64,000 nt of DNA from an uncultured virus (IMG/VR IMGVR_UViG_3300000302_000058) (IMGVR_UViG_3300000302_000058); one strand, 5' to 3'; counted from the first letter of the stretch, positions 8,723 to 61,250 are shown. The notes: a model not told the origin generated them from the sequence alone. A program made the numbers and translations.

Positions 8723-9207
8723 GTGTTTTTCCTTTCTCTCTTGAACTATATATATTATAGCACAAGAAAAAAGGGCAGTCAAACACGTTACCGTGTCTAA
8801 CTGCCCAAGTATTTAAAACTCTGTATAATTAATAGCAAAGTTTTTAAGTCTTTTTAAAGTTTCATTATCCTCTTGGAAAAAATTAATTCTATCTGTAGAA
8901 TCTCCAAGAGCACAAACATTGGAAAATAATTGTGTTAAACGCCAATCAGGGTATGCGTGCCAAATAGCCGCAATTAAATCACAAATCTCGTCAATTCGCT
9001 CAGGGTCACGCATAAGTATCATCCTCAATTTTCGCCCGACAATTAGCACATCTTTTATTACTAAGAAAATTTCCTGTCCCGCATAGTGAACAAGTTCCAG
9101 TAAATTCTTGTATATCAGAATGAAATTTTAACGAAAGTAAATGACAGGTTTTATTATAATTATCTACTAATCGTTTAGAAGGTTCACATTTCCGCATAAA
9201 AGGCGGT

Positions 9208-17524: not shown

Positions 17525-17623
17525 ATCATTTCCTTTCTCTTGGAATAAATATATTATACCCTATTTAAGAGAAAAAGGCAAATAAAAAAAGCCATAAACT
17601 TATAAAAAGTCTATGGCCGCAAA

Positions 17624-18865: not shown

Positions 18866-19015
18866 TAAGTTCCTTTCTCTCTCTTGGATAAGGATATTAT
18901 AACATAATCCAAAAGCAAAAGTCAAATATAAAACAGAGGACAGAGCGTGTTATCCTCGCATGCTTCAGTTTCGGGCCGAAGCCTAGTGCCACCCCACCCC
19001 ACGGGGGTAAAAAGC

Positions 19016-19175
19016 TGGTACCCTTGAAGAGATTCGAACTCTTACTGACAGCCACCTTAAANNNNNNNNNNNNNNNNNNNNNNNNNNNNNNNNNNNNNNN
19101 NNNNNNNNNNNNNNNNNNNNNNNNNNNNNNNNNNNNNNNNNNNNNNNNNNNNNTCTGCCGTTGGGCTACAAGGGC
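19016..19175 (-). tRNA. tRNA, probably Leu(TAA) (N-gap inside)
   Basis: Acceptor GCCCTTG/CAAGGGT-ACCA, T-arm TTCGAAT, Leu-type D arm; anticodon borders the gap. Confidence 0.7.
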
Positions 19176-19183
19176 AAATAAAA

Positions 19184-19288
19184 AAGCGGAAACAGAAGAA
19201 CGGCAAGTATGTTGGAATCGAACCAACTTAGATAGTTTTGCAGACTATTTTCAATCCATATGAAGTAAGCCGTTCTATCATCACGCTT
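19184..19288 (-). ncRNA. Y-RNA-like RNA (family copy 4) carrying an anticodon arm (GCA) and a T-arm
   Basis: AAGCG-T-GATGA...TTACTTC...TTTC-CGCTT scaffold shared with the Ro60-adjacent RNAs. Confidence 0.7.
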
Positions 19289-19392
19289 ATTTAATATATT
19301 GGGGTTAGCTATTTCAATATCTTCAGAAGTTTGCTAAACATCTTACTGTCACCCGGTCAATAGCTAGTTTAAGCGTTTCCCCAAAATATCTG

Positions 19393-19483
19393 TGGCGGTT
19401 GGTTGAGGTCACGCTCCCCAACGGTTTTTACCCGTCCCATCGCTTTCGAGGCGAGTCCGGCACGCTTGTCCGGTTAACCAACC
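19393..19483 (-). tRNA. tRNA-Ser(CGA), non-canonical T-loop
   Basis: Loop CTCGAAA, long variable arm, GCCA end. Confidence 0.8.
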
Positions 19484-19495
19484 AATAATAATCTG

Positions 19496-19584
19496 TGGCG
19501 GAAGACTGAGATGCTGACTCCCATACCATCGCTGGTACCAACCGGCTTCCAACCGGTGCCCGAGGCCGCTCGGGTTAATCTTCC
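19496..19584 (-). tRNA. tRNA-Ser(GGA), non-canonical T-loop
   Basis: Loop TTGGAAG, long variable arm, GCCA end. Confidence 0.85.
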
Positions 19585-19587
19585 ATA

Positions 19588-19678
19588 TGGCAGAGACGGT
19601 GGGTGCTGACCCCACTCACGGTCATAAACCGCCTAGCAGTTTAGCAAACTGCCCCCTTTACCGATTGGGTACGTCTCT
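19588..19678 (-). tRNA. tRNA-Ser(GCT), non-canonical T-loop
   Basis: Loop TTGCTAA, long variable arm, GCCA end. Confidence 0.87.
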
Positions 19679-19690
19679 GTTTTCAAAATC

Positions 19691-20268
19691 AAGAACCTTG
19701 AAAAGAGAATAATTAGATGGACCTTCGTCCTACTGACAATTATCTTCTTTCATGTTCGACCATAGAGAAGCAACAGGCTGAGGTTGGCTAGCTACTTCCA
19801 TACCTTCTGTTGCCAAGTAAACTCTAGCGGGATTGTCTACCCGCACGCTTCACCCACAATTCAGCAAATTAGAATGATATACGTAGATTTCAAGTCTACC
19901 AACTGTATAACGGACTTGGGCTACACACGACACGATTGCTGTGTTATACACGGATTTCTCCGCTTCACGTCCACGAGGATTATTGGTATTACCGCTGGTT
20001 TCCTAAGCTACCACACCTAAGACCTTTCGGCTTATTGCTCACTGAGCCGTCTATTGCTCCCCGCACACCAATCGCTGTCTTTGAAAGCGATAATCTCAGC
20101 ACCACGACTTGCTCTTATATCCGTCCGGTTTCATACATAGCATCACTGCTATGCGTAAGGCTTTACCAGAGTATCCCCTGTTTAGGCCCCGTGCGTTCGT
20201 CGTGTCTCAGCACCAGCTGTTTACTGGCTCTTCACTGAGTTATCTATTATCCTCTTTTCAAGGTTCTT
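19691..20268 (-). ncRNA. large structured ncRNA, ROOL-like candidate (about 578 nt)
   Basis: Ends pair as a 17-bp perfect stem (AAGAACCTTGAAAAGAG), many internal hairpins, no credible ORF, perfect TTGACA-17-TATAAT promoter at 20276-20304, inside tRNA cluster. Confidence 0.7.
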
Positions 20269-20275
20269 TATATCA

Positions 20276-20304
20276 ATTATAACATAAGCTATAATTGGTG
20301 TCAA
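20276..20304 (-). promoter_or_regulatory. sigmaA-type promoter of the large ncRNA
   Basis: TTGACA-ccaattatagcttatgt-TATAAT. Confidence 0.8.
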
Positions 20305-20444
20305 GTAAAAAACTTTACCTTTTGATTTTAAAACCGAAGTGATAAAATCTTTAACCGTCTCGACCGAAGCCTTCCGGTGAGCTGACTATTATATATTATC
20401 AAATCCAATAGAAACTGTCAACTATAAACTTATCATTTACGATA

Positions 20445-20530
20445 AAAGACGGAAACCATATAAACAGCTAAACTGTGAATGGCCTTTTCTATTTCGAAAA
20501 AGAAGTAAGCCGTTTATTCATCACGTCTTT
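20445..20530 (-). ncRNA. Y-RNA-like RNA (family copy 5)
   Basis: AAAGACG-T-GATGA-ATAAACGGC-TTACTTC...GCTGTTTAT...TTTC-CGTCTTT; own TTGACA-18-TATAAT promoter. Confidence 0.7.
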
Positions 20531-20571
20531 ATGTATATTATACCATATAAAGTATACGATTGTCAAATAGA

Positions 20572-20655
20572 GGTGCGCCATCAAAGAATCGAACTTTGCG
20601 GGGCATAGCCAAGAGCTTTACAGGCTCCACCGTCTCCATAGCGGGCTAATGACGC
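20572..20655 (-). tRNA. tRNA-Tyr(GTA)
   Basis: Loop CTGTAAA, variable arm, TTCGATT. Confidence 0.85.
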
Positions 20656-20666
20656 ATATATAAACG

Positions 20667-20743
20667 TGGTAGGCAGGGGGAGAATCGAACTCGCCGTTTT
20701 CCGGTTATAAGCCAGATGTTCTCGGCCACTAAACTACCCGCCC
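20667..20743 (-). tRNA. tRNA-Ile(TAT)
   Basis: Loop CTTATAA, ACCA end. Confidence 0.85.
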
Positions 20744-20768
20744 AAAACAGGTTTATAACAAAATCATA

Positions 20769-20847
20769 TGGCACCTTCGCTAGGATTCGAACCTAGATAA
20801 GACACAGTTTTGGAGACTGTCGCACTAGCCAGTTGTGCTACGAAGGT
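20769..20847 (-). tRNA. tRNA-Trp(CCA)
   Basis: Loop CTCCAAA, GCCA end. Confidence 0.9.
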
Positions 20848-20851
20848 ATTG

Positions 20852-20925
20852 GGAGCGAATAGCCAGAATCGAACTGGCATCTTCTCGTTGGCAACGAGAA
20901 ATTCTAACCGTTAAACTATATTCGC
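20852..20925 (-). tRNA. tRNA-Gly(GCC)
   Basis: Loop TTGCCAA, cloverleaf. Confidence 0.9.
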
Positions 20926-20926
20926 G

Positions 20927-21000
20927 TCTGCTATGACGGATTTGAACCGCCGACCCCCTGAACCCAAATCAGGTGCCCTACCAAACTAGGCCAATAGCAG
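20927..21000 (-). tRNA. tRNA-Pro(TGG)
   Basis: Loop TTTGGGT, cloverleaf, no CCA. Confidence 0.88.
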
Positions 21001-21003
21001 ATA

Positions 21004-21088
21004 TGGTGGGTCTGACAGGATTTGCACCTGCGCGCCTTACGGCACTTGCTTCTAAGGCAAGCGTGTATGCTAGTTCCACCACAGACCC
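21004..21088 (-). tRNA. tRNA-Leu(TAG)
   Basis: Loop CTTAGAA, variable arm, ACCA. Confidence 0.9.
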
Positions 21089-21134
21089 ATATTATATATT
21101 AACAGATTGACCAATAGAAGTCAACTGTAATATT

Positions 21135-21209
21135 TGGAGTTCCGTTCAGGAGTCGCACCTGACTAAACGCTTTTGCAGAGCGGTGCCTAAACTGCTCGGC
21201 CAACGGAAC
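21135..21209 (-). tRNA. tRNA-Cys(GCA)
   Basis: Loop CTGCAAA, TCCA end. Confidence 0.9.
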
Positions 21210-21211
21210 AG

Positions 21212-21286
21212 TGGAGCGACAGACGGGATTCCAACCCGCACTAAGAGCTTGGAAGGCTCGTGTGCTAAGCATTACACTACAGTCGC
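21212..21286 (-). tRNA. tRNA-Gly(TCC)
   Basis: Loop CTTCCAA, TCCA end. Confidence 0.9.
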
Positions 21287-21292
21287 ATTTTT

Positions 21293-21367
21293 TGGGGTAT
21301 CTACAGAGACTTGAACTCTGAACTACAGAGCCACAGTCTGTCGTGTTACCGTTACACCATAGACACC
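21293..21367 (-). tRNA. tRNA-His(GTG)
   Basis: Loop CTGTGGC, G-1 and CCCA end. Confidence 0.9.
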
Positions 21368-21380
21368 GTAATAATTAAGA

Positions 21381-21456
21381 TGGTAGCCGCACGGTGACTT
21401 GAACACCGATTTTCTGCTTGAGAGACAGATTTCCTGACCAGTTAGAAGATGCGGCC
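21381..21456 (-). tRNA. tRNA-Glu(CTC)
   Basis: Loop CTCTCAA, ACCA end. Confidence 0.9.
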
Positions 21457-21461
21457 AAATA

Positions 21462-21536
21462 TGGTAGCGGATAGGGGTTACGCTCCCCTTTCTCAGGCTT
21501 GAAAGGCCCGCGAACTAACTATTATTCTAATCCGCC
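21462..21536 (-). tRNA. tRNA-Glu(TTC), non-canonical T-loop
   Basis: Loop CTTTCAA; T-loop AGCGTAA. Confidence 0.82.
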
Positions 21537-21547
21537 GAATAAACATA

Positions 21548-21621
21548 GGCGCACACGAGGGATTACGATACCCCGACCTCTTGCGTGACAGGCAAGCGTT
21601 CTTCCTCTGAACTACGTGTGC
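21548..21621 (-). tRNA. tRNA-Asp(GTC)
   Basis: Loop CTGTCAC; T-loop ATCGTAA. Confidence 0.85.
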
Positions 21622-21626
21622 ATATA

Positions 21627-21703
21627 TGGTGGAGCTAGTGGGGGTCGAACCCACGACCTTTTGCTTGCAAAGCAACTGCTCATCCCAACTGAGCTATAGC
21701 CCC
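21627..21703 (-). tRNA. tRNA-Ala(TGC)
   Basis: GGGGCTATAGCTCAG, G3.U70, loop TTTGCAA. Confidence 0.93.
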
Positions 21704-21715
21704 AAGATAACAGAA

Positions 21716-21791
21716 TGGTGCTCGGTAGAAGACTTGAACTTCTGACCTTATGCTTGTAGGGCATCTGCGCTACCAACTGCGCCAACCGAGC
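21716..21791 (-). tRNA. tRNA-Val(TAC)
   Basis: Loop CCTACAA, ACCA. Confidence 0.9.
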
Positions 21792-21796
21792 ATTTA

Positions 21797-21872
21797 TGGT
21801 GGGGACTCTTGGAGTCGAACCAAGTACACTTTGCTCTTCAGGCAAATGCTCTACCAATTGAGCTAAGTCCCC
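21797..21872 (-). tRNA. tRNA-Phe(GAA)
   Basis: Loop CTGAAGA, ACCA. Confidence 0.92.
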
Positions 21873-21874
21873 AA

Positions 21875-21951
21875 TGGTAGCACGTACAAGAGTTGAACTT
21901 GTGACCTCTCGCTTATCAGGCGAGCGCTCTAACCAACTGAGCTAACGTGCT
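21875..21951 (-). tRNA. tRNA-Ile(GAT)
   Basis: Loop CTGATAA, ACCA. Confidence 0.92.
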
Positions 21952-21953
21952 AT

Positions 21954-22029
21954 TGGTGCTACCGGATAGATTTGAACTATCACCACCGAAGGTATGAGCT
22001 TCGTGCTCTACCGATTAAGCTACAGTAGC
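21954..22029 (-). tRNA. tRNA-Met/Ile2(CAT)
   Basis: Loop CTCATAC, ACCA. Confidence 0.88.
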
Positions 22030-22030
22030 A

Positions 22031-22108
22031 TGGTGCGCCATGAGGGACTCGAACCCCCACCACACGCATTCGTAGTGCGTTGCTCTAATCCAACTGAGCT
22101 AATGGCGC
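22031..22108 (-). tRNA. tRNA-Arg(ACG)
   Basis: Loop CTACGAA, ACCA. Confidence 0.92.
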
Positions 22109-22110
22109 AA

Positions 22111-22187
22111 TGGTGCCCTCGCTGGGACTTGAACCCAGACTCTTGGGATTAAGAGTCCCCTGCTTTAGCCAATTAAGCTACGAAGGC
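22111..22187 (-). tRNA. tRNA-Lys(CTT)
   Basis: Loop CTCTTAA, ACCA. Confidence 0.92.
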
Positions 22188-22218
22188 ATTTTGAAGAATA
22201 TTCTCTGAATACCCTTCG

Positions 22219-22289
22219 CTCCCAGCTTGGGTTCCGCCCCCAAAATTCTTGATTAACAGTCAAGTGTGATACTATTTCACCAGCCGGGA
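22219..22289 (-). tRNA. tRNA-Asn(GTT), non-canonical T-loop, no CCA
   Basis: CTTGA-CTGTTAA-TCAAG anticodon arm; T-loop GGCGGAA. Confidence 0.75.
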
Positions 22290-22306
22290 GCGAAAGATAT
22301 TCGTTC

Positions 22307-22961
22307 TTATACCATCTTCCATTTAAAACCATAAGCTATTTTCCCATAATTACGAGCCGCACGAGATAAATGAATATGCACTCCGTCAGGATTTTTAGTT
22401 TTAGCAATCTTCATATCTATCAAATACCGAGCAGCTTCGTTTATAGAAGTAAATATACTTATTACTTGCTCAGATTTAGAATCTATCATTGCTATCTTTT
22501 TACTTTGGTTTTGAATGGATATTTGTTGTGAAGACAAGGTCTGAATACCACATTCTTTACAAGCTGTTTGTACGACTCCAACATCACAATTAAAAAATTC
22601 AGCAGTTGCTTTTTGGTTTTGCAATTCTAAATATTTATGAGCAATTTTATCATAATCATAATATTTCTTACTATCTCCGCCTTTAGTGGCATTATATCCA
22701 CCACTTCCATAAGTTTGGAAGTTTATCAATCCAATAAATTTCTTTGTTAGCAGCTTCTTCTGCTAAGCATTCTTCTAGAATCTCTATATAAAAATGTTCT
22801 ACTCCATACTTTCTCATAGCATTATAAAGAGGACGTTTTTCACATCGTCTTTTTCTACTATCTAGAACATGCTCATGGAATCTTTTTTGAATATTTCCAT
22901 TTGTTTTGCCAACATATTGCTTGTTATTTATATCGTTAGTAATAACATAAATAAAAGCCAT
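22307..22961 (-). pseudogene. GIY-YIG endonuclease with NUMOD1-type HTH, frameshifted near 22730
   Basis: FIYVITN...YVGKT in 22692-22961 continues in another frame as GYNATKGG...AYGFKW (22307-22729). Confidence 0.7.
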
Positions 22962-22984
22962 AGCTTATACCCTTCTCGAAAAAA

Positions 22985-23060
22985 TGGAGCCGCCATCCAG
23001 ACTTGAACTGGAAACCCCTTCATTACTAGTGAAGTGCTCTACCATTTGAGCTATGGCGGC
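22985..23060 (-). tRNA. tRNA-Thr(AGT)
   Basis: CTTCA-CTAGTAA-TGAAG arm, GCCGCCA acceptor, TCCA end. Confidence 0.88.
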
Positions 23061-23063
23061 AAA

Positions 23064-23139
23064 TGGTCGCGGGAATCGGAGTCGAACCGAATGTCTTCGG
23101 CTTATGAGGCCGCTGTGGAAACCGTTTCACCCTCCCGCT
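23064..23139 (-). tRNA. tRNA-Met(CAT), initiator-like
   Basis: Loop CTCATAA; 1:72 mismatch; ACCA. Confidence 0.8.
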
Positions 23140-23184
23140 ATATTATAATATATCAAATCCTATAGTAATTGTCAAATGAAAAAT

Positions 23185-23258
23185 TGGCTGGCTCGGAAGG
23201 TACCGCCCCCTCGTTCTATCATCCAAAGTGATATGTTCTACTATTGAACTACGAGCCA
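23185..23258 (-). tRNA. tRNA-Gln(TTG), non-canonical T-loop
   Basis: Loop CTTTGGA; T-loop GGCGGTA; GCCA. Confidence 0.82.
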
Positions 23259-23259
23259 A

Positions 23260-23421
23260 TGGCTTCTCCGCTACGACTTGAACGTAGAATGAATGAACCA
23301 GAGTCATTCGTGTTGCNNNNNNNNNNNNNNNNNNNNNNNNNNNNNNNNNNNNNNNNNNNNNNNNNNNNNNNNNNNNNNNNNNNNNNNNNNNNNNNNNNNN
23401 NNNNNNNNNNNNCACGGAGAA
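23260..23421 (-). tRNA. tRNA-Gln(CTG) (N-gap in D arm)
   Basis: Loop CTCTGGT, TTCAAGT, GCCA. Confidence 0.8.
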
Positions 23422-23424
23422 ATA

Positions 23425-24095
23425 AACGCGAATTTTTAACACCAAAATCCGCAAACGACCTCTTCGCCTAGTTCGCCTTTGTTTTAATCAAGAAACAAAA
23501 TGGTAAAAAGAGGAGCAGTTTCATATCTCCTGAAACTCCGCTATCCGTTAGCTAGACGGAATCACTTGAAACCGGAAGCTGCCAAGGTTGCTTCTCCTCG
23601 AACAGGGGTTTAAAGCTCTACCCACACTCCGATGAAACTGGGCCTTTATGCCTTTTACGTCATCAAAAGACTCTAAAATAAGACGTTCCTAATATAATGC
23701 GTCCATTATATAGGCATCGTTGGTTTTACTTAACGCCCCAAACCAACTAAAGCGGCTGCATTCAGTTCTCACAGCTCACTGGATTTACTCATTGTTTATA
23801 CTCGTAGAACTCCAAAACATTCGAGTGCATTTTGATAAGCCGTGGCAAGTTCAAGGCTTGCTCGTGCTTTTGGAATACACTGACAACTACTCACCGTTTC
23901 GTATGCGGGACGAACGACAACAGACCATACTACTTTAGCTTTTGTCTCCTGTGTATCCTAAAAGCACGGCTGAAAATGTTTCAGCTAGGCTTCGTCCTGT
24001 CGGACTCTTTGAACCAAGACCCTGTGCTATCAATCTTGGCTCAAAGAAACCGGCGGCGGGTTGTTCGAAGCGAACACCCGTAAAACGCTTTTCTC
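23425..24095 (-). ncRNA. large structured ncRNA candidate (about 670 nt; GOLLD-like or new)
   Basis: No credible ORF, many hairpins (e.g. TCTTTGAGCCAAGA/TCTTGGTTCAAAGA), strong promoter at 24111-24140, heads the tRNA operon. Confidence 0.6.
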
Positions 24096-24154
24096 TCTTG
24101 AACTATATACATTATAGCATATCAGAGAATATATTGTCAAATACTTTTTTTTGA

Positions 24155-24601
24155 CTAACTATCAAACCAAAAGACAACACGAATATCCATATCGCTGCCA
24201 AAAAACCAAGCTTGGTCCCCCATAAAATCAATAGCGTGAATAAGCGGCTTCAAGCTTGCTCGTTCCATCTTATTATAACGCTTTTTATCTTTGGTGGCAA
24301 GCCGAAGTTCTGCCAAAGTTAGCCAAGAGGGCGTATGATATTCGTCTTGATACTCTTCATACTGCTCTCTAATGTAATCGCTAACATCATAAGGAATACC
24401 TCGTGGGTCAACGATAGGGTCGCTGGTCCCACGGACACCGGCAAGTACACTGAACATGGTATAATCGCGTCCATTGTAACACGAAACCTCTTGGTCAGAA
24501 TTTTTGTAACGAATAGGAGTTACCAGTTTCATAACGATGGGTTCCCATTTACCCGTATCCTTATCACGGCATTCCACATAAGGATGGATATCGCAGCCCA
24601 T
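24155..24601 (-). CDS. conserved-looking hypothetical phage protein
   Basis: MGCDIH...GRDYTMFSVLAGVR...RVVFWFDS; GGAGG RBS. Confidence 0.7.
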   Translation of the reverse strand: MGCDIHPYVECRDKDTGKWEPIVMKLVTPIRYKNSDQEVSCYNGRDYTMFSVLAGVRGTSDPIVDPRGIPYDVSDYIREQYEEYQDEYHTPSWLTLAELRLATKDKKRYNKMERASLKPLIHAIDFMGDQAWFFGSDMDIRVVFWFDS

Positions 24602-24655
24602 AAAATCCTCCTTTAACTCTTTGCTTCTTTGATTATATTATAGCATAATCAATGT

Positions 24656-24973
24656 CTAAGAGTCAAATACCAATTCTCGGTTTGCTCGTTCAAGCTGAAA
24701 TTCGTCTTCGGAAATAGCCTGAATGACGAACGTACCCTTACAAATATCTAATCCACTCGTCTGAAAATATCTCTTCAACTGAGTCAGACAATCATTGTAT
24801 GCTTCTTCATATAAAGTTGTCAAGGAATCTTTTACCTCACCGATGGAAGTAACATCTGCTTCTTGACCCGCATTCGCCGCAAACAGATAATATCTGCTCT
24901 GCGGAGCCTTTTGGAAGATTCGCCCCAGACAGAAGATAGAATCTCGATTATCAAGATGCTGAATTTCAATCAA
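24656..24973 (-). CDS. hypothetical protein
   Basis: ORF in operon. Confidence 0.5.
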   Translation of the reverse strand: MIEIQHLDNRDSIFCLGRIFQKAPQSRYYLFAANAGQEADVTSIGEVKDSLTTLYEEAYNDCLTQLKRYFQTSGLDICKGTFVIQAISEDEFQLERANRELVFDS

Positions 24974-25224
24974 CTCAATGAATTTTGAGTCAAAAAAACA
25001 CCATAGGCTTCTTCTTGCGGAATTTGCTGAATATCGCCTATGGTGAATTCCATATCTGAATCTTCAATATCTTCGTCCTCTACAGTAAGTCCCAAATATT
25101 CGATTTGAGCAATACTAGCAACAAGACTAAGTATCTCATCTTCAGTGAACCATTCACTAACAGCGATATAGTATGTCGGTTTAAAGGAGATATTAGAATC
25201 TAGCGCACATTGAAAATACCTCAT
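24970..25224 (-). CDS. acidic hypothetical protein
   Basis: ORF with AAGGAG RBS. Confidence 0.5.
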   Translation of the reverse strand: MRYFQCALDSNISFKPTYYIAVSEWFTEDEILSLVASIAQIEYLGLTVEDEDIEDSDMEFTIGDIQQIPQEEAYGVFLTQNSLS

Positions 25225-25262
25225 TTTTTATATATCTCCTTTCATTAATCGTATAAACAAAA

Positions 25263-25337
25263 TGGAGCTTCCACACCGAATCGAACGGAGACTTTTTCAT
25301 TACAAGTGAAATGTTCTAGCCTTTAAACTATGGAAGC
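25263..25337 (-). tRNA. tRNA-Thr(TGT)
   Basis: Loop CTTGTAA, TCCA end. Confidence 0.88.
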
Positions 25338-25671
25338 AAAAAACAATAGAGTAGTGTGGATGATGGCGGTGGTGGTTATAAACCCACACTACTCTATTGA
25401 ATGGACTCTTTTATGGAATCTCGCTGTCAAAAAAAGTCCAGAAAAACCGCGACCGTCTTCCTCTTTCGAGCGCCTAGAAAACGGTATGAAAAAGGCTCCA
25501 CAGAAGTTTTTTCATCTTTTCCGCTTAAAAACCCTCTAGTTAAAAAGTAGCTGCGGATACAGGTATCCACACTATGAGTCAGTGTATGTCACAGCCTAGT
25601 CATGTACACTCCTAGGTCGTTTCCTGCTGCCCAGGGAATAACTATATTATACAATAAAACAAAATCGTTGT

Positions 25672-26046
25672 CTAGAGAATACCATCCATATTAGAGACAA
25701 TATTCTCAAGTCGGCGAGCAATATCTGCCTTGGTGTTACCCTTGCGACTTGTAGAACGAAGAGCATCAATTTCCGCACGAATCTCTTCCTGAGTATTTCG
25801 AATCTCTTCCTCAGCGTTGTAATAGGCAATGCCCCAAATACCGTCTTGAGTATTATGCTTATTAACCTCAAACTTTTCAAAACAAGATTCAAGCTCAGGA
25901 TACTGAGTATAATTATTAATGGCCTCGCTAATAAGATTAGCAACATCCACAGTATCAAGCTGGTAATCACGTTCAATCATTTCAAGAAGCTGACGAAAAT
26001 CAAAAACCGGCTCAGACTTCCCGCTGTTCATGGCTACAGCAATCAT
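25672..26046 (-). CDS. hypothetical protein
   Basis: ORF with own promoter and GGAG RBS. Confidence 0.6.
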   Translation of the reverse strand: MIAVAMNSGKSEPVFDFRQLLEMIERDYQLDTVDVANLISEAINNYTQYPELESCFEKFEVNKHNTQDGIWGIAYYNAEEEIRNTQEEIRAEIDALRSTSRKGNTKADIARRLENIVSNMDGIL

Positions 26047-27102: not shown

Positions 27103-27351
27103 TTACACATGGTCGTGAAATGTGCGACTGATAACTTCATCTTGTTGGTCTTTAGTAAGATTATGAAAATTTACAGCATAACCGCTGACCCTGATTGTAA
27201 GTTGAGGATATAGTTCAGGATGTTGTTGAGCATGTACAAGCATATCTTTATTTATCACATTAACATTGATATGCTGTCCACCAAATTCTCCATTAAAATA
27301 TCCATCTAGCAAACTAACAAGATTGTCGATTTGATTCTGAGATATCATCAA
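27103..27351 (-). CDS. grcA: autonomous glycyl-radical cofactor (GrcA-like, PFL C-terminal domain)
   Basis: [39 protein letters not shown]. Confidence 0.88.
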
Positions 27352-28345
27352 CTTCGCCTCCTTTATGGTTAACTATTAAATTCCATAAATATTCATTATC
27401 TATATTGTCATAATCCCAATAAGGAATGCGAATTAATTTAATACCTTTTTCTTTGCAATATCTATTTTTAATATTGTCTTTTCTCTGTTCATCTTGCAGA
27501 GTTATATGTCTCCAAGTTGTTTCTTTATAATGTTGTATACCGTCATATTCAATACAACAATTATAGTCTGGCAAATAAAAATCAAAACGTAATTTCTTAT
27601 TAGTCATGTCATTAATACAATTAGAAAAAGAATATTCTCTTTCATAGGATATATTCAAAGAAGATAAAATTTCTACAATTTTATTCTCTCCTTTTGAAAC
27701 TGGAATAGAACATCCACAATGCCAGATATGACCGCTTGTTAAATCTCTTGAATGAACGTCCCGAGTTCCGCCACATTCACAAGAGCAATGCCACAATCTT
27801 CCATATGGGTCTACTCCATCTTGTTCAATTAAATATTCTACAGTTAATTTGCCAAATTTATATCCTGTTAAGTCATGAGCAGAATCTTTTCCGTTGACCA
27901 CACATCTGGTAATATTTTCTTTTTTATAACAACTAGGACATTTTGTAGATTTCCCTGCACACACATCCGATAAACGAGTTATCCAATTGGTATCTCCACA
28001 AATAGGACATGCAAAACGTCCTAATCTAGAATTGCCAGCATGACCCTCTTCTTCTATAAATAAAATATTATAGGGGCCAACACGCATTCTCGGTTGATAC
28101 TTTTTATTTAATGTATTAAAAATACTATTTTCTTTACGCCATTTAATTCGACAGTCAGAACATCTGCAAGCATCTCCAACTTTTACATTTTGATTTAATG
28201 CTTCGAAAAGTTGGCCGCAATCAGGACATTGATACCATCCCCACTTGTGTTTTCCATATTTATCTACTCTATCTGAACGCTTGACTAATAATAGGTTATG
28301 TGGTCCATAAGTATTTCCCGGAACATAGTTTAATTTTCTAGGCAT
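27314..28345 (-). CDS. Cys-rich free-standing endonuclease (paralog of 9208-10290)
   Basis: CxxC/CxCxCG modules; [23 protein letters not shown]...LIRIPYW. Confidence 0.75.
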
Positions 28346-56757: not shown

Positions 56758-56987
56758 ACACTATCCTTTCTCTTGGTTTACCTATATTATAACACATCAT
56801 AAAAATATTGTCAAAGCACGTAAAATTGGATATTAAATTTAATCAATATCTAATTTTACACACTTTGCGGGCAAAAAACGATAAATTTTGCCGCAATTCT
56901 ATTATATTTTAATAGTTCTTGGATTGTCAACTGCAATTTTTGGGAATAATTAAGACAAAGTAAACTCTATTAAAGGAGGATAATGTT

Positions 56988-58100: not shown

Positions 58101-59469
58101 GGAGTGCGGCAAAACCAAGCCAATTAACAAATTTTGGCATCGTAAGAACGGTACTCTTTTTGATGTTTGTAAAGAGTGTGCTTGGAAATATATCGACAAC
58201 AAGAAACCGAACACTTTTCTGTGGATTCTAAAAGAAGCCGACGTTCCGTTCATCGAGGAACGTTGGGTTGACTTGTGCCGCAAAAAGTATAACAAAGACC
58301 CGCATCACTTTGGTTGTAGTTCTGTTATTGGTACTTATTTACGAATTATGTATACAAAAGGTTTTACCAACTACAACTATAGTGATACCTTAGAATTGAA
58401 CAAGAATCTAATCGAAGACCGCAAGCGTGCGGCTGAAAGTAAGGCAAACGCCGCAGAACGAGCAAAGCAATTTGAAGAAGAGGTTAACGAGGTTTCTTTT
58501 TCCGGCGACCTTTTTAAGAACGCCGTGCCGGATATGGCACCAAACGAAGAATATGAGATTGAAGAAGTTACTGAAATGGAGCTTGCTGGGCCGGAACAGC
58601 CTTTGCCGCCAATTGATTATCGTAATACGCCAGTTGCTCCACAAGGCGTTAAGATTGAATATTCAAATCGTGTTCCAAAAGAACAAAAGACAACTGCCCC
58701 TACGAGCATCCAATCTTACGATGTTGTAGATGTTGACGAGCAATCCATTCTAAATGATTTGACTCCGAATGATGTTCAATATCTTGCAATGAAGTGGGGT
58801 AGTAGTTTTAAACCATCTGAATGGGTAAAGATGGAAGACATGTATCAAAAGTATTGCGGTGAATTTGAGATTAGTGTAGACCGTGAAGCTGTACTTATCT
58901 CGATGTGTAAAACAAGTGTCAATATGCAGCGTTGTCTTGATTCTGGAGATGCGGCCAATGCTCAAAAGTTCTCTTCTATGTTTGACCAACTCCGTAAGTC
59001 AGGCGCATTCACTGAGGCACAGAAGAAAGAGGAAAAAGACCATTATCTTGACTCTCTTGGAGAGCTGGTTGCAACTGTTGAGAGAGAAGGAGGGGTCATT
59101 CCTAAGTTTGACTATGAGTTTGAGGTGAATCCTGACAAGGTTGATTTAACCCTCAAAGATATGAAGTCATATACTTATAATCTTGTTAAGAACGAAATGG
59201 GTCTTGGTGACCTTATCGAATCTTACATTCAGAAACTTGAACAGCAAATGGAAGAAGAAAAAAATAAAAGCTTGTCTGATGGTCTTGTCACAAGTAAAGC
59301 AGAAGAGCAACAAATTCAAAACGATGAATTTGCTGACGATTGGCTTAATAATCTTGAAGATTCTATTGCGGCTGATGCTGATGAACTTTACGCTAAGATT
59401 GGCGATGAAGATGATAATAAATATATCGAAATGATTCGTGCCAATCAACAAGAGGACGGAGAGGAATAA
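58075..59469 (+). CDS. putative terminase small subunit (N-terminal Zn finger)
   Basis: CKEC...CKEC; position directly before the large subunit. Confidence 0.5.
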   Translation: MEQQKKTCKECGKTKPINKFWHRKNGTLFDVCKECAWKYIDNKKPNTFLWILKEADVPFIEERWVDLCRKKYNKDPHHFGCSSVIGTYLRIMYTKGFTNYNYSDTLELNKNLIEDRKRAAESKANAAERAKQFEEEVNEVSFSGDLFKNAVPDMAPNEEYEIEEVTEMELAGPEQPLPPIDYRNTPVAPQGVKIEYSNRVPKEQKTTAPTSIQSYDVVDVDEQSILNDLTPNDVQYLAMKWGSSFKPSEWVKMEDMYQKYCGEFEISVDREAVLISMCKTSVNMQRCLDSGDAANAQKFSSMFDQLRKSGAFTEAQKKEEKDHYLDSLGELVATVEREGGVIPKFDYEFEVNPDKVDLTLKDMKSYTYNLVKNEMGLGDLIESYIQKLEQQMEEEKNKSLSDGLVTSKAEEQQIQNDEFADDWLNNLEDSIAADADELYAKIGDEDDNKYIEMIRANQQEDGEE

Positions 59470-61250
59470 TGGCTCTTAAAGATTTGCTCTCCGTGGAAAA
59501 GAGTATATCTGCTCCAACGGTGGCGTTAGAAGATATCACCAAAGATAGAATTAAAAAGGATTTGCCGCAATTGAGAAAGCTGATTGCTTACTGGCGAGTA
59601 TATCCCGATAAGTTCGTAGATTATCTTTGTTCGTTGAATCCAGACAATACTTTTAAGTTCTTCTTTTATCAACGAGTCTTTTTGCGGGCGATTTTGCGGC
59701 ACAAGTATGTATACTGCGTGTTTTGCCGTGCTTATTCGAAATCCTTTTTGACAGCTATGGGGTCGATGATTAAGTGCATTCTTTATCCCGGAAGTCGAAT
59801 CTTTGTGGCTTCTGCGGGTAAAGAACAGTCAGCGTCAATTCTTAGTAGCAAGGTACAGGAGATTTGTAAACTTATTCCTGCTTTTGAGCACGAGATTATC
59901 TGGGATGTACGCGGGTCACAAGGCAAAGCCCGCACACGTAACACTAAAGACAGTGTTATCTATACTTTTCGCAACGGTTCGTCTTTAGAGAACGTTGCTA
60001 TGACTGAATCTACTCGTGGACAGCGTTTCACTAGCGGCGTTCTTGAAGAATGTGCCAGTATGGACCAAGATAAACTTAACGAGATTATTCTTCCGACTCT
60101 TAATGTTTCTCGTAATGTACCGGGATATGGCGTTGACGAAAATGAAGTTGCCAACCAGAGTGCGGTTTATATTACTACAGCTGGATACAAGGGTACATTT
60201 AGTTATGATAAGTTGATTCAAATTCTTTGTCAATCGGTTGCTCGCCCAGACCAAGCGATTATTCTTGGTGGTACTTATCGCACACCGATGATGGAACGAC
60301 TACTTAGCCGTAACTTTATTTCTGACCTTAAGCAAGACGGTACTTTTAACGAAGCATCTTTTGACCGTGAATATAATTCTATTTGGAGCGGTAGTATTGA
60401 AGGTGCGTTCTTTGATACCGAAAAGTTTGATAAATACAGAGATATTCAATTGCCGGAGTGGGAAGCAAATAATAAGTCTTCCAAGAACGCTTATTATCTT
60501 CTTGGCGTAGACGTTGGCCGTCTTGGTTGTACTACAGAGGTTATTGTTTGTAAGGTAACACCTGCTCCTACAGGAGTTTCCCAAAAGCATATTGTCAATC
60601 TATATAGTTACGAAGCAGAACATTTTGGTGAACAATCTATTAATATTAAGCGTTTATTCCATAAATATAAATGTCGCATAGCTGTTATCGACGCCAATGG
60701 TTTGGGTGCAGGACTTGTAGACTGGTTAGTTGTTGACCAAGATGACCCTGATACTGGTGAACCTCTTGGGGCGTTTGGCGTTTACAATGACGATGATGGT
60801 AACTATAAAAAGTTTTTGAATAATTCTGCGTATCCATTCCCGAATTCAATTTATCTTATGAAAGCAAATGCCACAATCAACACTGAGCTTTACTCTTACT
60901 GTCAGACTCAAATGGGTAGCGGTAAGATTCGTTTCTTAATTGACGAAAACACTGCGAAGAATAAGTTAATGTCTCAGGCTCAGAGTAAGAGAATGGGTAA
61001 GGCAAAGCGAGCGGAATATTTGCGGCCATATGTTCTCACTTCTATTCTTGAAGACCAGATGGCTAATCTTATTCAAGAAAATGAGGGTATGAATATTATT
61101 TTGAAGCAGAACAACCGTACAATTAAGAAGGATAAATTTTCGGCGTTGATTTATGCTCTTTCTTGGCCGAAGATGATAGAAGAGAAAGGCGGGCGTAAAC
61201 GCCGAGGAAATATCAAAGACTTGATGTTGTTCACGAAAGCGAAGCGTTAA
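59469..61250 (+). CDS. terL: terminase large subunit
   Basis: RAYSKSF Walker A variant, RGQR, VLEE Walker B, ITTAG, GVDVGR and KDKFSA nuclease motifs. Confidence 0.9.
   Translation: MALKDLLSVEKSISAPTVALEDITKDRIKKDLPQLRKLIAYWRVYPDKFVDYLCSLNPDNTFKFFFYQRVFLRAILRHKYVYCVFCRAYSKSFLTAMGSMIKCILYPGSRIFVASAGKEQSASILSSKVQEICKLIPAFEHEIIWDVRGSQGKARTRNTKDSVIYTFRNGSSLENVAMTESTRGQRFTSGVLEECASMDQDKLNEIILPTLNVSRNVPGYGVDENEVANQSAVYITTAGYKGTFSYDKLIQILCQSVARPDQAIILGGTYRTPMMERLLSRNFISDLKQDGTFNEASFDREYNSIWSGSIEGAFFDTEKFDKYRDIQLPEWEANNKSSKNAYYLLGVDVGRLGCTTEVIVCKVTPAPTGVSQKHIVNLYSYEAEHFGEQSINIKRLFHKYKCRIAVIDANGLGAGLVDWLVVDQDDPDTGEPLGAFGVYNDDDGNYKKFLNNSAYPFPNSIYLMKANATINTELYSYCQTQMGSGKIRFLIDENTAKNKLMSQAQSKRMGKAKRAEYLRPYVLTSILEDQMANLIQENEGMNIILKQNNRTIKKDKFSALIYALSWPKMIEEKGGRKRRGNIKDLMLFTKAKR

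Follow-up and report, generated by a model that had tools for sequence, protein, structure and literature searches.

A candidate family of large structured noncoding RNAs at the head of a phage tRNA operon

What is a phage doing with some 670 nucleotides (nt) of hairpin-rich DNA that stand behind a strong promoter, at the head of an operon of transfer RNA (tRNA) genes, and that are free of open reading frames (ORFs)? The question is posed by positions 23425 to 24095 of a 64,000-nt stretch of DNA from an uncultured virus (IMG/VR IMGVR_UViG_3300000302_000058), which as a whole is called the window here. A reading made from the sequence alone had proposed that this element, which is read on the minus strand, as are all the tRNA genes of the window, is a second large noncoding RNA heading the tRNA operon and distinct from a first one nearby. 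That proposal has fared well: the element has syntenic homologues and covarying helices, and it matches no Rfam family. The RNA is very probably real and conserved, and quite probably structured rather than merely conserved. The answer that is favored here, with moderate confidence, is that the stretch encodes a large structured noncoding RNA, of a family outside Rfam, that is released from a tRNA precursor as an independent functional RNA; by class, it is a new family within a known kind, the "large structured phage RNAs of tRNA islands."

Homologues, helices and the search for a known family

Homologues exist in four other sequences; with the window there are five distinct versions, four of them full-length. 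Two of the relatives come from IMG/VR: G001, which is 143.6 kilobases (kb) long with terminal repeats (its locus is L003), and G002, a 43.9-kb fragment (locus L011). The other two come from metagenomes: L073, a distinct variant on a 143-kb contig, and L071, a 1.8-kb contig that holds only the 3' part. All homologues are syntenic: an ORF of 148 amino acids (aa) is followed by a perfect promoter (at the equivalent place in G001, L011 and L073), the ORF-free element, a tRNA-Gln(CUG) gene and further tRNAs. R1, a covariance model built on the 3' core, has a single match in the window (23515-23688, 218.7 bits) and likewise a single match in each of G001 and G002. When the window and G001 are compared over 2.5 kb around the locus, the blocks of the RNA are the best conserved part (169 nt at 91% and 47 nt at 96%); among the neighbors, an ORF fragment stands at 77% and a promoter-plus-tRNA piece at 81%.

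The case for structure is carried by paired changes, scored in a 5' junction alignment (A7: 4 sequences, 27 pairs) and a 3' core alignment (A6: 5 sequences, 25 pairs, 5 helices). At the 5' junction 94.4% of 108 cells are paired, falling to 29-44% when the partners are slid by 1-3 columns, and 9 of the 27 pairs have changed on both sides, compared with 3.0 ± 1.3 in shuffles, none of 500 of which reached that count. In the 3' core 99.2% of 120 cells are paired and 3 of the 25 pairs have changed on both sides (reached by 3 of 500 shuffles): C-G to G-C in helix Pa (in L011), G-C to U-A in hairpin 2 (in L073), and G-C to A-U in hairpin 4 (in G001), with a G.U intermediate at the covarying hairpin 4 pair in run X1. 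The total comes to 12 double-changed pairs, 9 in the 5' domain and 3 in the 3' core, among four to five related sequences. (A technical note: relatedness alone can exceed shuffles, but does so rarely (0-1%) for measures that count pairs, which are the ones that stand out here.) In each of the four full-length variants, moreover, the minimum-energy fold forms both hairpin H1 and a hairpin with a GACG tetraloop, on stems that differ in sequence.

The minimum-energy fold of the candidate (-218.6 kcal/mol, z -4.4) was equaled by none of 20 shuffles, but the plus strand, too, folds well (z -6.4), so that folding energy alone does not choose the strand. The choice is made by G.U pairs in the supported helices (14-97, 15-96, 114-122 and 22-89 in A7; 3-34 in A6): these would be A.C mismatches on the plus strand, and the minus strand is accordingly the RNA strand.

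What of the familiar large RNAs? Two different giant RNAs within 4 kb of each other had been suspected, and two there are, the first of them being ROOL:

19699-20263, minus strand: ROOL RNA (RF03087), 302.7 bits against a gathering score of 99.1, covering the full model (1-574), within the tRNA array

The second matches neither ROOL nor GOLLD. The covariance-model check that the sequence-only reading had called for (GOLLD, ROOL, OLE, RNase P, transfer-messenger RNA (tmRNA), introns) leaves the candidate without a family. At gathering scores Rfam finds 24 matches in the whole window, 1 ROOL and 23 tRNA, none of them within 23425-24103. When all 4227 models of Rfam 15 were run on 23414-24200 with permissive filters at E<=10, there was no real match, including to introns, RNase P, tmRNA, OLE, raiA, HEARO, ribozymes and riboswitches; the sole matches on the candidate at this threshold, to 3 animal or plant microRNA models (E 2-3.9, all on one long hairpin), are noise. 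GOLLD (RF02032; threshold 150 bits, a model of the conserved 3' domain) gave no match at E<=10 in 23414-24200, and 0 matches in G001 (32 of 32 candidates scored) and G002 (8 of 8). Nothing in 23414-24200 matches ROOL even at E<=10, and 19699-20263 remains its only match. The G001 locus yields tRNAs and noise only against Rfam; ARAGORN finds no tmRNA in the window; and blastn (word 11) of a 747-nt stretch against 50,697 GenBank phage records returned no match. A literature search on ROOL, GOLLD, nanocage, ornate and large noncoding RNAs, covering mostly listings and abstracts, met no description of this RNA, which is no proof of absence.

Protein coding by the element is excluded. The stretch is ORF-free, as had been claimed: no minus-strand ORF in 23425-24140 exceeds 36 aa. 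The sequence-only reading had also named two outcomes that would tell against it, a lack of covarying homologues and a degraded gene. Homologues exist and their helices covary; and the core has at least one stop in each of the six frames in all five variants, the longest open stretch has 46 codons, no ATG, GTG or TTG start gives 30 aa or more, and a 1-nt indel in L073 breaks the frame. Of the ORF fragments on the two strands, the seven longest match no Pfam family, and the only PHROG matches, of one plus-strand TTG frame (E 0.008 and E 0.3), are at the level of noise.

The known spread of this RNA is one narrow clade of gut phages, which limits both statistics and generality. The window comes from a large tailed phage. 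Its large terminase shows 44% identity to its counterparts in the Enterococcus phages VRE9_4 and H1, and Phass-1 gives a match too. Three scans of IMG/VR with different 19-23-mers each returned only the contigs G001 and G002. A 20-mer scan of metagenomes gave 8 matches, 3 of them true loci and 5 of them chance (the third true locus, L075, is identical to G001 over 1,200 nt), and a 19-mer scan across 185,579 species genomes yielded no homologue, all 13 of its matches being chance. Copies that are ~98% identical occur in the chicken-gut-type DNA runs X1 and X5 (14 and 13 differences over 734 and 695 nt), and contigs of 201-576 nt from RNA libraries of two studies (X15, chicken gut; X16, wastewater) carry further variants of the conserved blocks. 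These last are other variants, comparable in the conserved blocks only, and such contigs cannot show transcript ends; they lend weak support to expression of the RNA.

The ORF that precedes the promoter offers another way into the distribution:

24155-24601, minus strand: ORF of 148 aa, N-terminus MGCDIH, PHROG 10141, of unknown function

Its protein is 52-57% identical between variants. A search with the single sequence found nothing, while an alignment of 3 sequences led to 54 IMG/VR loci; the RNA was found (nhmmer with a core profile) at only 2 of the 54, both already known. The AlphaFold model of the protein is confident (pLDDT 82.8), but it has no Foldseek match in the PDB at E<=0.001 (VIA-align best Z 3.5) and adds no functional context.

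Layout of the RNA

Read from the promoter toward the tRNAs, the locus is laid out as follows.

24111-24140, minus strand: sigma-70 type promoter, TTGACA, 18-nt spacer with TG (extended -10), TATAAT; 12 of 12 consensus matches
24085-24104, minus strand: leader derived from a promoter and ribosome-binding-site (RBS) cassette, GAAAGGA turned to GAAAAGC, without a start codon
24057-24080, minus strand: hairpin H1, which folds in all four full-length variants, with stems CGGGU/ACCCG, GCUGGU/ACCAGC and GCAGAGU/ACUCUGC
23971-24053, minus strand: window-type insertion seen in the alignment, three extra hairpins between H1 and P2, including a 15-base-pair (bp) stem and GCUGAAA/UUUCAGC
23839-23970, minus strand: 5' three-way junction, with a closing helix 23970-68/23841-39 (3 bp), P2 at 23967-49/23882-64 and hairpin P3 at 23861-45
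23717-23838, minus strand: middle module, variable, here of type A; its hairpins include ACUCG..CGAGU and GUUGGUUU..AAACCAAC (23747-23719)
23688-23714, minus strand: GACG-tetraloop hairpin; the loop (23703-23700) is invariant, and no two variants have the same stem
23515-23688, minus strand: conserved 3' core of ~175 nt with five helices: Pa 23686-82/23661-57, hairpin 2 23623-20/23609-06, hairpin 3 23594-90/23579-75, hairpin 4 23560-44, hairpin 5 23537-31/23523-17
23425-23514, minus strand: 3' tail, optional; its last feature, directly before the tRNA-Gln position, is a terminator-like hairpin (23453-23427, 10-pair stem then a T run)
23318-23413, no strand assigned: masked stretch of 96 N; by homology, the greater part of the element's closing tRNA-Gln lies here

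The strong promoter cassette that had been noted, in which the RBS GAAAGGA has become GAAAAGC with no start codon, is indeed present on the minus strand. Its promoter is among the 3 perfect (12/12) sites in 19000-26000; over the whole window there are 7 exact TTGACA-N16-19-TATAAT sites, this one included, where 0.08 are expected. The start of transcription would lie near 24104 if it is placed 7 nt after the -10 box; by that convention the RNAs would be ~680 nt long in the window, ~854 in G001, ~471 in L011 and ~817 in L073, a range that reflects the gain and loss of peripheral hairpins among the variants. The cassette has 12 copies in the window, counted as TATAAT followed by GAAAGGA within 8-38 nt (0.14 expected), and in one of them, at 8730-8759 (minus strand), the leader is nearly identical to that of the candidate. 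The three full-length relatives carry a different 5' hairpin, GAGGAU..AUCCUC, at the position of this leader, and the window is without it.

All four hairpins that the sequence-only reading had listed can be located: CGGGTGTTCG/CGAACAACCCG (24080-24057), GCTGAAA/TTTCAGC (23985-23969), GTTGGTTT/AAACCAAC (23747-23719) and CCGTCTAGCTAACGG (23559-23545). The first is H1, in whose stem two positions have changed on both sides (judged by eye). The window-type insertion is absent from G001, L011 and L073 and present in the X1 and X5 copies (98% identical). Helix P2 has 17-19 bp and a variable tip. The middle module comes in two unrelated types: type A is common to the window and L011 (76% identical), and G001 and L073 carry type B; the place of 23747-23719 is nevertheless taken by a hairpin in every variant, each with a different stem. 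(Two folding candidates were set aside: a two-sequence RNAalifold of the middle modules, the alignment being too poor to count, and a CCCA/UGGG hairpin, rejected in favor of GGGU/ACCC on account of a paired loss in L073.)

At the 3' end, the claim that the element runs into tRNA-Gln stands for the relatives, in all four of which tRNA-Gln(CUG) lies directly 3' of the element, while the position of the window's own tRNA-Gln is masked; in L071, the closest relative, this tRNA starts 5 nt past the same terminal hairpin, which equals ~23424 in the window. The 3' tail is common to L071 and L073 and is absent from L011, in which hairpin 5 is separated from tRNA-Gln by 7 nt. Across the variants, the spacing between core and tRNA-Gln runs from 7 to ~250 nt. 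A separate observation concerns G001 (L003 1676-1815) and L073 (minus strand, ~1206-1360): both have an extra module of ~140 nt, ~85% identical, between core and tRNA-Gln, with a T-arm-like GGUUGGAAUCC and no Rfam or ARAGORN match; this could be a further RNA element.

How the RNA would be made and used, and the competing accounts

If this is an independent RNA, how might it come free, and what might it do? The 7-nt interval between the last core hairpin and tRNA-Gln in L011 implies that RNA and tRNAs form one primary transcript there, and in general the RNA would be transcribed as the 5' part of a polycistronic tRNA precursor. RNase P matures the 5' ends of all tRNAs by cleavage: its cut at tRNA-Gln would make the 3' end of the RNA and free a stable, folded molecule. 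The freed molecule might then act as an RNA particle, in the manner of ROOL and GOLLD, rather than as a leader in cis; encapsulation, sequestering of host factors and protection of the phage tRNAs are among its conceivable roles. The particle might self-associate through a palindromic loop, UAGCUA, in the core:

23544-23560, minus strand: hairpin 4, candidate kissing loop; 4-bp stem, 9-nt loop UCUAGCUAA, palindrome UAGCUA (23554-23549)

This loop is invariant in all five variants. One X15 contig (from the RNA library; depth 6.7) departs from it: the stem is CCUG/CAGG, and the loop has the mirrored changes A to G and U to C, with the result that its hexamer, UGGCCG, stays self-complementary, as contact between the loops of two copies predicts. 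The layout of the loop, UC-UAGCUA-A, is like that of the dimerization initiation site of human immunodeficiency virus type 1 (HIV-1), whose 9-nt loop places a 6-nt palindrome between two bases on the 5' side and one on the 3' side; molecule and context are unrelated, and the analogy is structural only. Self-assembly of the RNA is, on these grounds, possible rather than probable. A second candidate contact would be internal: the loop of P3, CUUGAA, could pair with UUCAAG of the core over 6 bp, linking the 5' and 3' domains, and an A-to-G change in L011 keeps a G.U pair.

A number of points weigh against an independent, structured and self-associating RNA. 1) With five distinct related sequences, four of them full-length, part of the covariation may reflect shared descent. 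2) The helices were drawn from the same sequences on which they are scored, which favors them over the slid controls. 3) Two of the five helices of the 3' core, 3 and 5, never vary. 4) An alternative long-range pairing of the core, CAGUUUCAU with AUGAAACUG (from RNAalifold), competes with hairpin 5 (it was rejected as the main fold on account of a U-to-C change at 23635 that is uncompensated in L011, L071, X1 and one X15 contig). 5) Among the nearest named phages, R1 has no match in Phass-1 or Geobacillus virus E3, and its match in VRE9_4 (10.9 bits, E 0.09) was taken as noise. 6) The RNA is absent from 52 of the 54 loci of the upstream protein family. 7) The RNA-library contigs may be DNA carry-over: one of them extends into the upstream ORF. 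8) The window-type terminator-like hairpin with its T run could add termination, or could make the RNA an attenuator for the tRNAs. 9) The variant that speaks for a kissing loop rests on that single contig of depth 6.7.

The main rival, which is unlikely, makes the element a leader acting purely in cis on the tRNA operon: an attenuator, a platform for processing by RNase P or RNase E, or protection for the 5' end, excised without any role of its own. It is true that the element always lies directly upstream of tRNA-Gln(CUG), that the window type ends in a terminator-like hairpin and T run, and that L011, with its 7-nt gap, has no independent terminator. But a distance between core and tRNA-Gln that varies from 7 to ~250 nt is odd for a cis device and argues against the core acting on tRNA-Gln in cis; the terminator-like hairpin is absent from both G001 and L011; elsewhere in this phage, tRNA blocks make do with plain promoters and no such leader (23175-23147, 20566-20537); and a 175-nt core conserved at ~91%, together with a covarying three-way junction, goes far beyond what an attenuator needs. 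Were the element merely a leader after all, it would still be an unusually elaborate one.

Somewhat less probable again is a decoy or "sponge" that acts in trans without assembling, titrating 30S subunits or a host RNA-binding factor through GGAG or CCUUG, or serving as a decoy for a defense that targets tRNAs. GGAG is 2-3-fold more frequent than in shuffles (L011 has 6 against 2.0 expected, reached by 1 of 500; the window has 6 against 2.9, reached by 31 of 500), four GGAG motifs lie within the invariant core, and three of the four variants repeat the heptamer CCUUGAA in their H1 and P3 loops. A report on these large RNAs also mentions binding of GOLLD to ribosomes in pull-downs (10.1101/2024.12.08.627333). 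The enrichment is weak, however, and falls short of significance in L073 (129 of 500).

The remaining two accounts are of a different order of improbability. Decay of a former protein gene, or a scar left by a mobile element such as a homing endonuclease or intron remnant, with incidental hairpins and no function, would suit the derivation of the leader from an ORF-type promoter-RBS cassette, the nearby homing endonuclease genes (GIY-YIG, HNH) and the swapping of modules between variants; it is very hard to square with both-sided pair changes in at least five helices, with a core better conserved than the neighboring gene, with ORF fragments that have no Pfam match and only PHROG noise, and with the lack of any match to intron or ribozyme models. 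A highly diverged GOLLD, ROOL or other known large RNA that the Rfam models have missed, for which the shared tRNA-island habit of phages and a variable-5', conserved-3' layout like that of GOLLD (as described in 10.1101/2024.12.08.627333) could be cited, is scarcely credible when 4227 models at E<=10 give no real match and RF02032 none in G001 or G002, and when canonical ROOLs of the same phages score 302-307 bits, so that divergence of the clade is not the reason.

ROOL, the tRNA island and mosaicism

ROOL and GOLLD are so far the only large phage RNAs known from tRNA islands. They lie near those islands and form homo-oligomers through kissing loops, and both build RNA-only cages of unknown function; ROOL, GOLLD and OLE are all held together by loop-loop contacts between copies (10.1101/2024.12.08.627333). 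The candidate resembles ROOL in being a phage-encoded, multi-helix noncoding RNA in a tRNA island with its own promoter (ROOL measures roughly 0.5-0.6 kb), and both are present in the same three phages, the window, G001 and G002. It differs from ROOL in its helices, in having no match of sequence or structure to the ROOL model and in its far narrower distribution; homo-oligomerization through kissing loops, which is known for ROOL, is here only suspected from sequence. Like GOLLD, the candidate is a large phage RNA adjoining tRNAs (which GOLLD has beside its locus or within it), and in both the 3' region is conserved and the 5' region less so; unlike GOLLD, it has a core of 175 nt rather than 416 model positions and a total length of 471-854 nt, compared with often >800. 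The comparison with GOLLD that the sequence-only reading had drawn thus stands for genomic context (a phage, adjoining tRNAs) and falls for membership, there being no RF02032 match.

A smaller precedent lies in the tRNA cluster of phage T4, whose stable "species 1 and 2" RNAs (rnaC, rnaD) are of ~140 nt, are not tRNAs and have unknown function; they are co-transcribed with the phage tRNAs and freed by the tRNA-processing enzymes. The likeness to the candidate is confined to biogenesis, which for the candidate is inferred, and the T4 RNAs are far from it in size; this is an analogy only.

If the favored account is true, an unrelated large RNA occupies a comparable position in phages that bear ROOL too: tRNA islands would then be a general home for big functional RNAs, and there would be a second handle on what the large RNAs of these islands do. 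The family also offers a natural minimal form (~471 nt, in L011) along with insertion variants, which is convenient for cryo-electron microscopy and for testing the putative palindromic contact by mutation.

ROOL has its own perfect promoter in the window (20304-20276) and lies ~3 kb downstream of the candidate; in G001 and G002 the distance is 3-4 kb, again downstream, and the scores across the three phages are 302-307 bits. ROOL is absent from Phass-1, VRE9_4 and Geobacillus virus E3. Do the two RNAs touch? An invariant segment of the core, UCCGGUUUCA (23565-23578, minus strand), is complementary to ROOL positions 131-140 (20111-20137, minus strand) in all three phages, with 13 Watson-Crick pairs in G002 and, with wobbles, 13-14 of 14 positions in each. 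The shared 10-mer is not above chance: it was reached by 46 of 200 shuffles for the window and 69 of 200 for G001. In the ROOL of this clade, at model positions ~136-150, the consensus hairpin is replaced by GAAACCGGACGGAUAU. In G002 only, 14 nt made up of the 5' strand of H1 and the preceding bases (L011 2360-2373, minus strand) are perfectly complementary to ROOL 89-102, which 0 of 200 shuffles equaled; this 14-mer is not conserved in the window or G001. One can put these elements together as a third independent class of self-assembling phage RNA, cut from a tRNA precursor, forming assemblies by palindromic kissing loops and working with ROOL and the phage tRNAs, in which the 10- to 14-nt complementarity of UCCGGUUUCA to ROOL would be an RNA-RNA contact; so ambitious a composite is doubtful.

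Other features of the island deserve mention. ARAGORN finds 26 tRNA genes in the window and Rfam adds 2, all on the minus strand. The two tRNA-like genes that ARAGORN misses lie at 23188-23258 and 23067-23139 (both minus strand; 48.6 and 40.6 bits), the latter preceded by another promoter, 23175-23147. The repeated promoter-leader-RBS cassette (TATAAT ... AAGAGAGAAAGGA) drives many small phage genes (at 8730-8759, 17531-17558, 18871-18901 and 56764-56791, for example). Homing endonucleases lie near the locus, a short GIY-YIG ORF inside the tRNA array (22692-22961, minus strand) and an HNH gene upstream (27314-28345, minus strand), and fit its mosaic state. The large terminase of the window (59469-61250, plus strand) is 100% identical to that of G001, yet the tRNA and RNA loci of the two phages are heavily rearranged, which points to strong mosaicism within one phage lineage.

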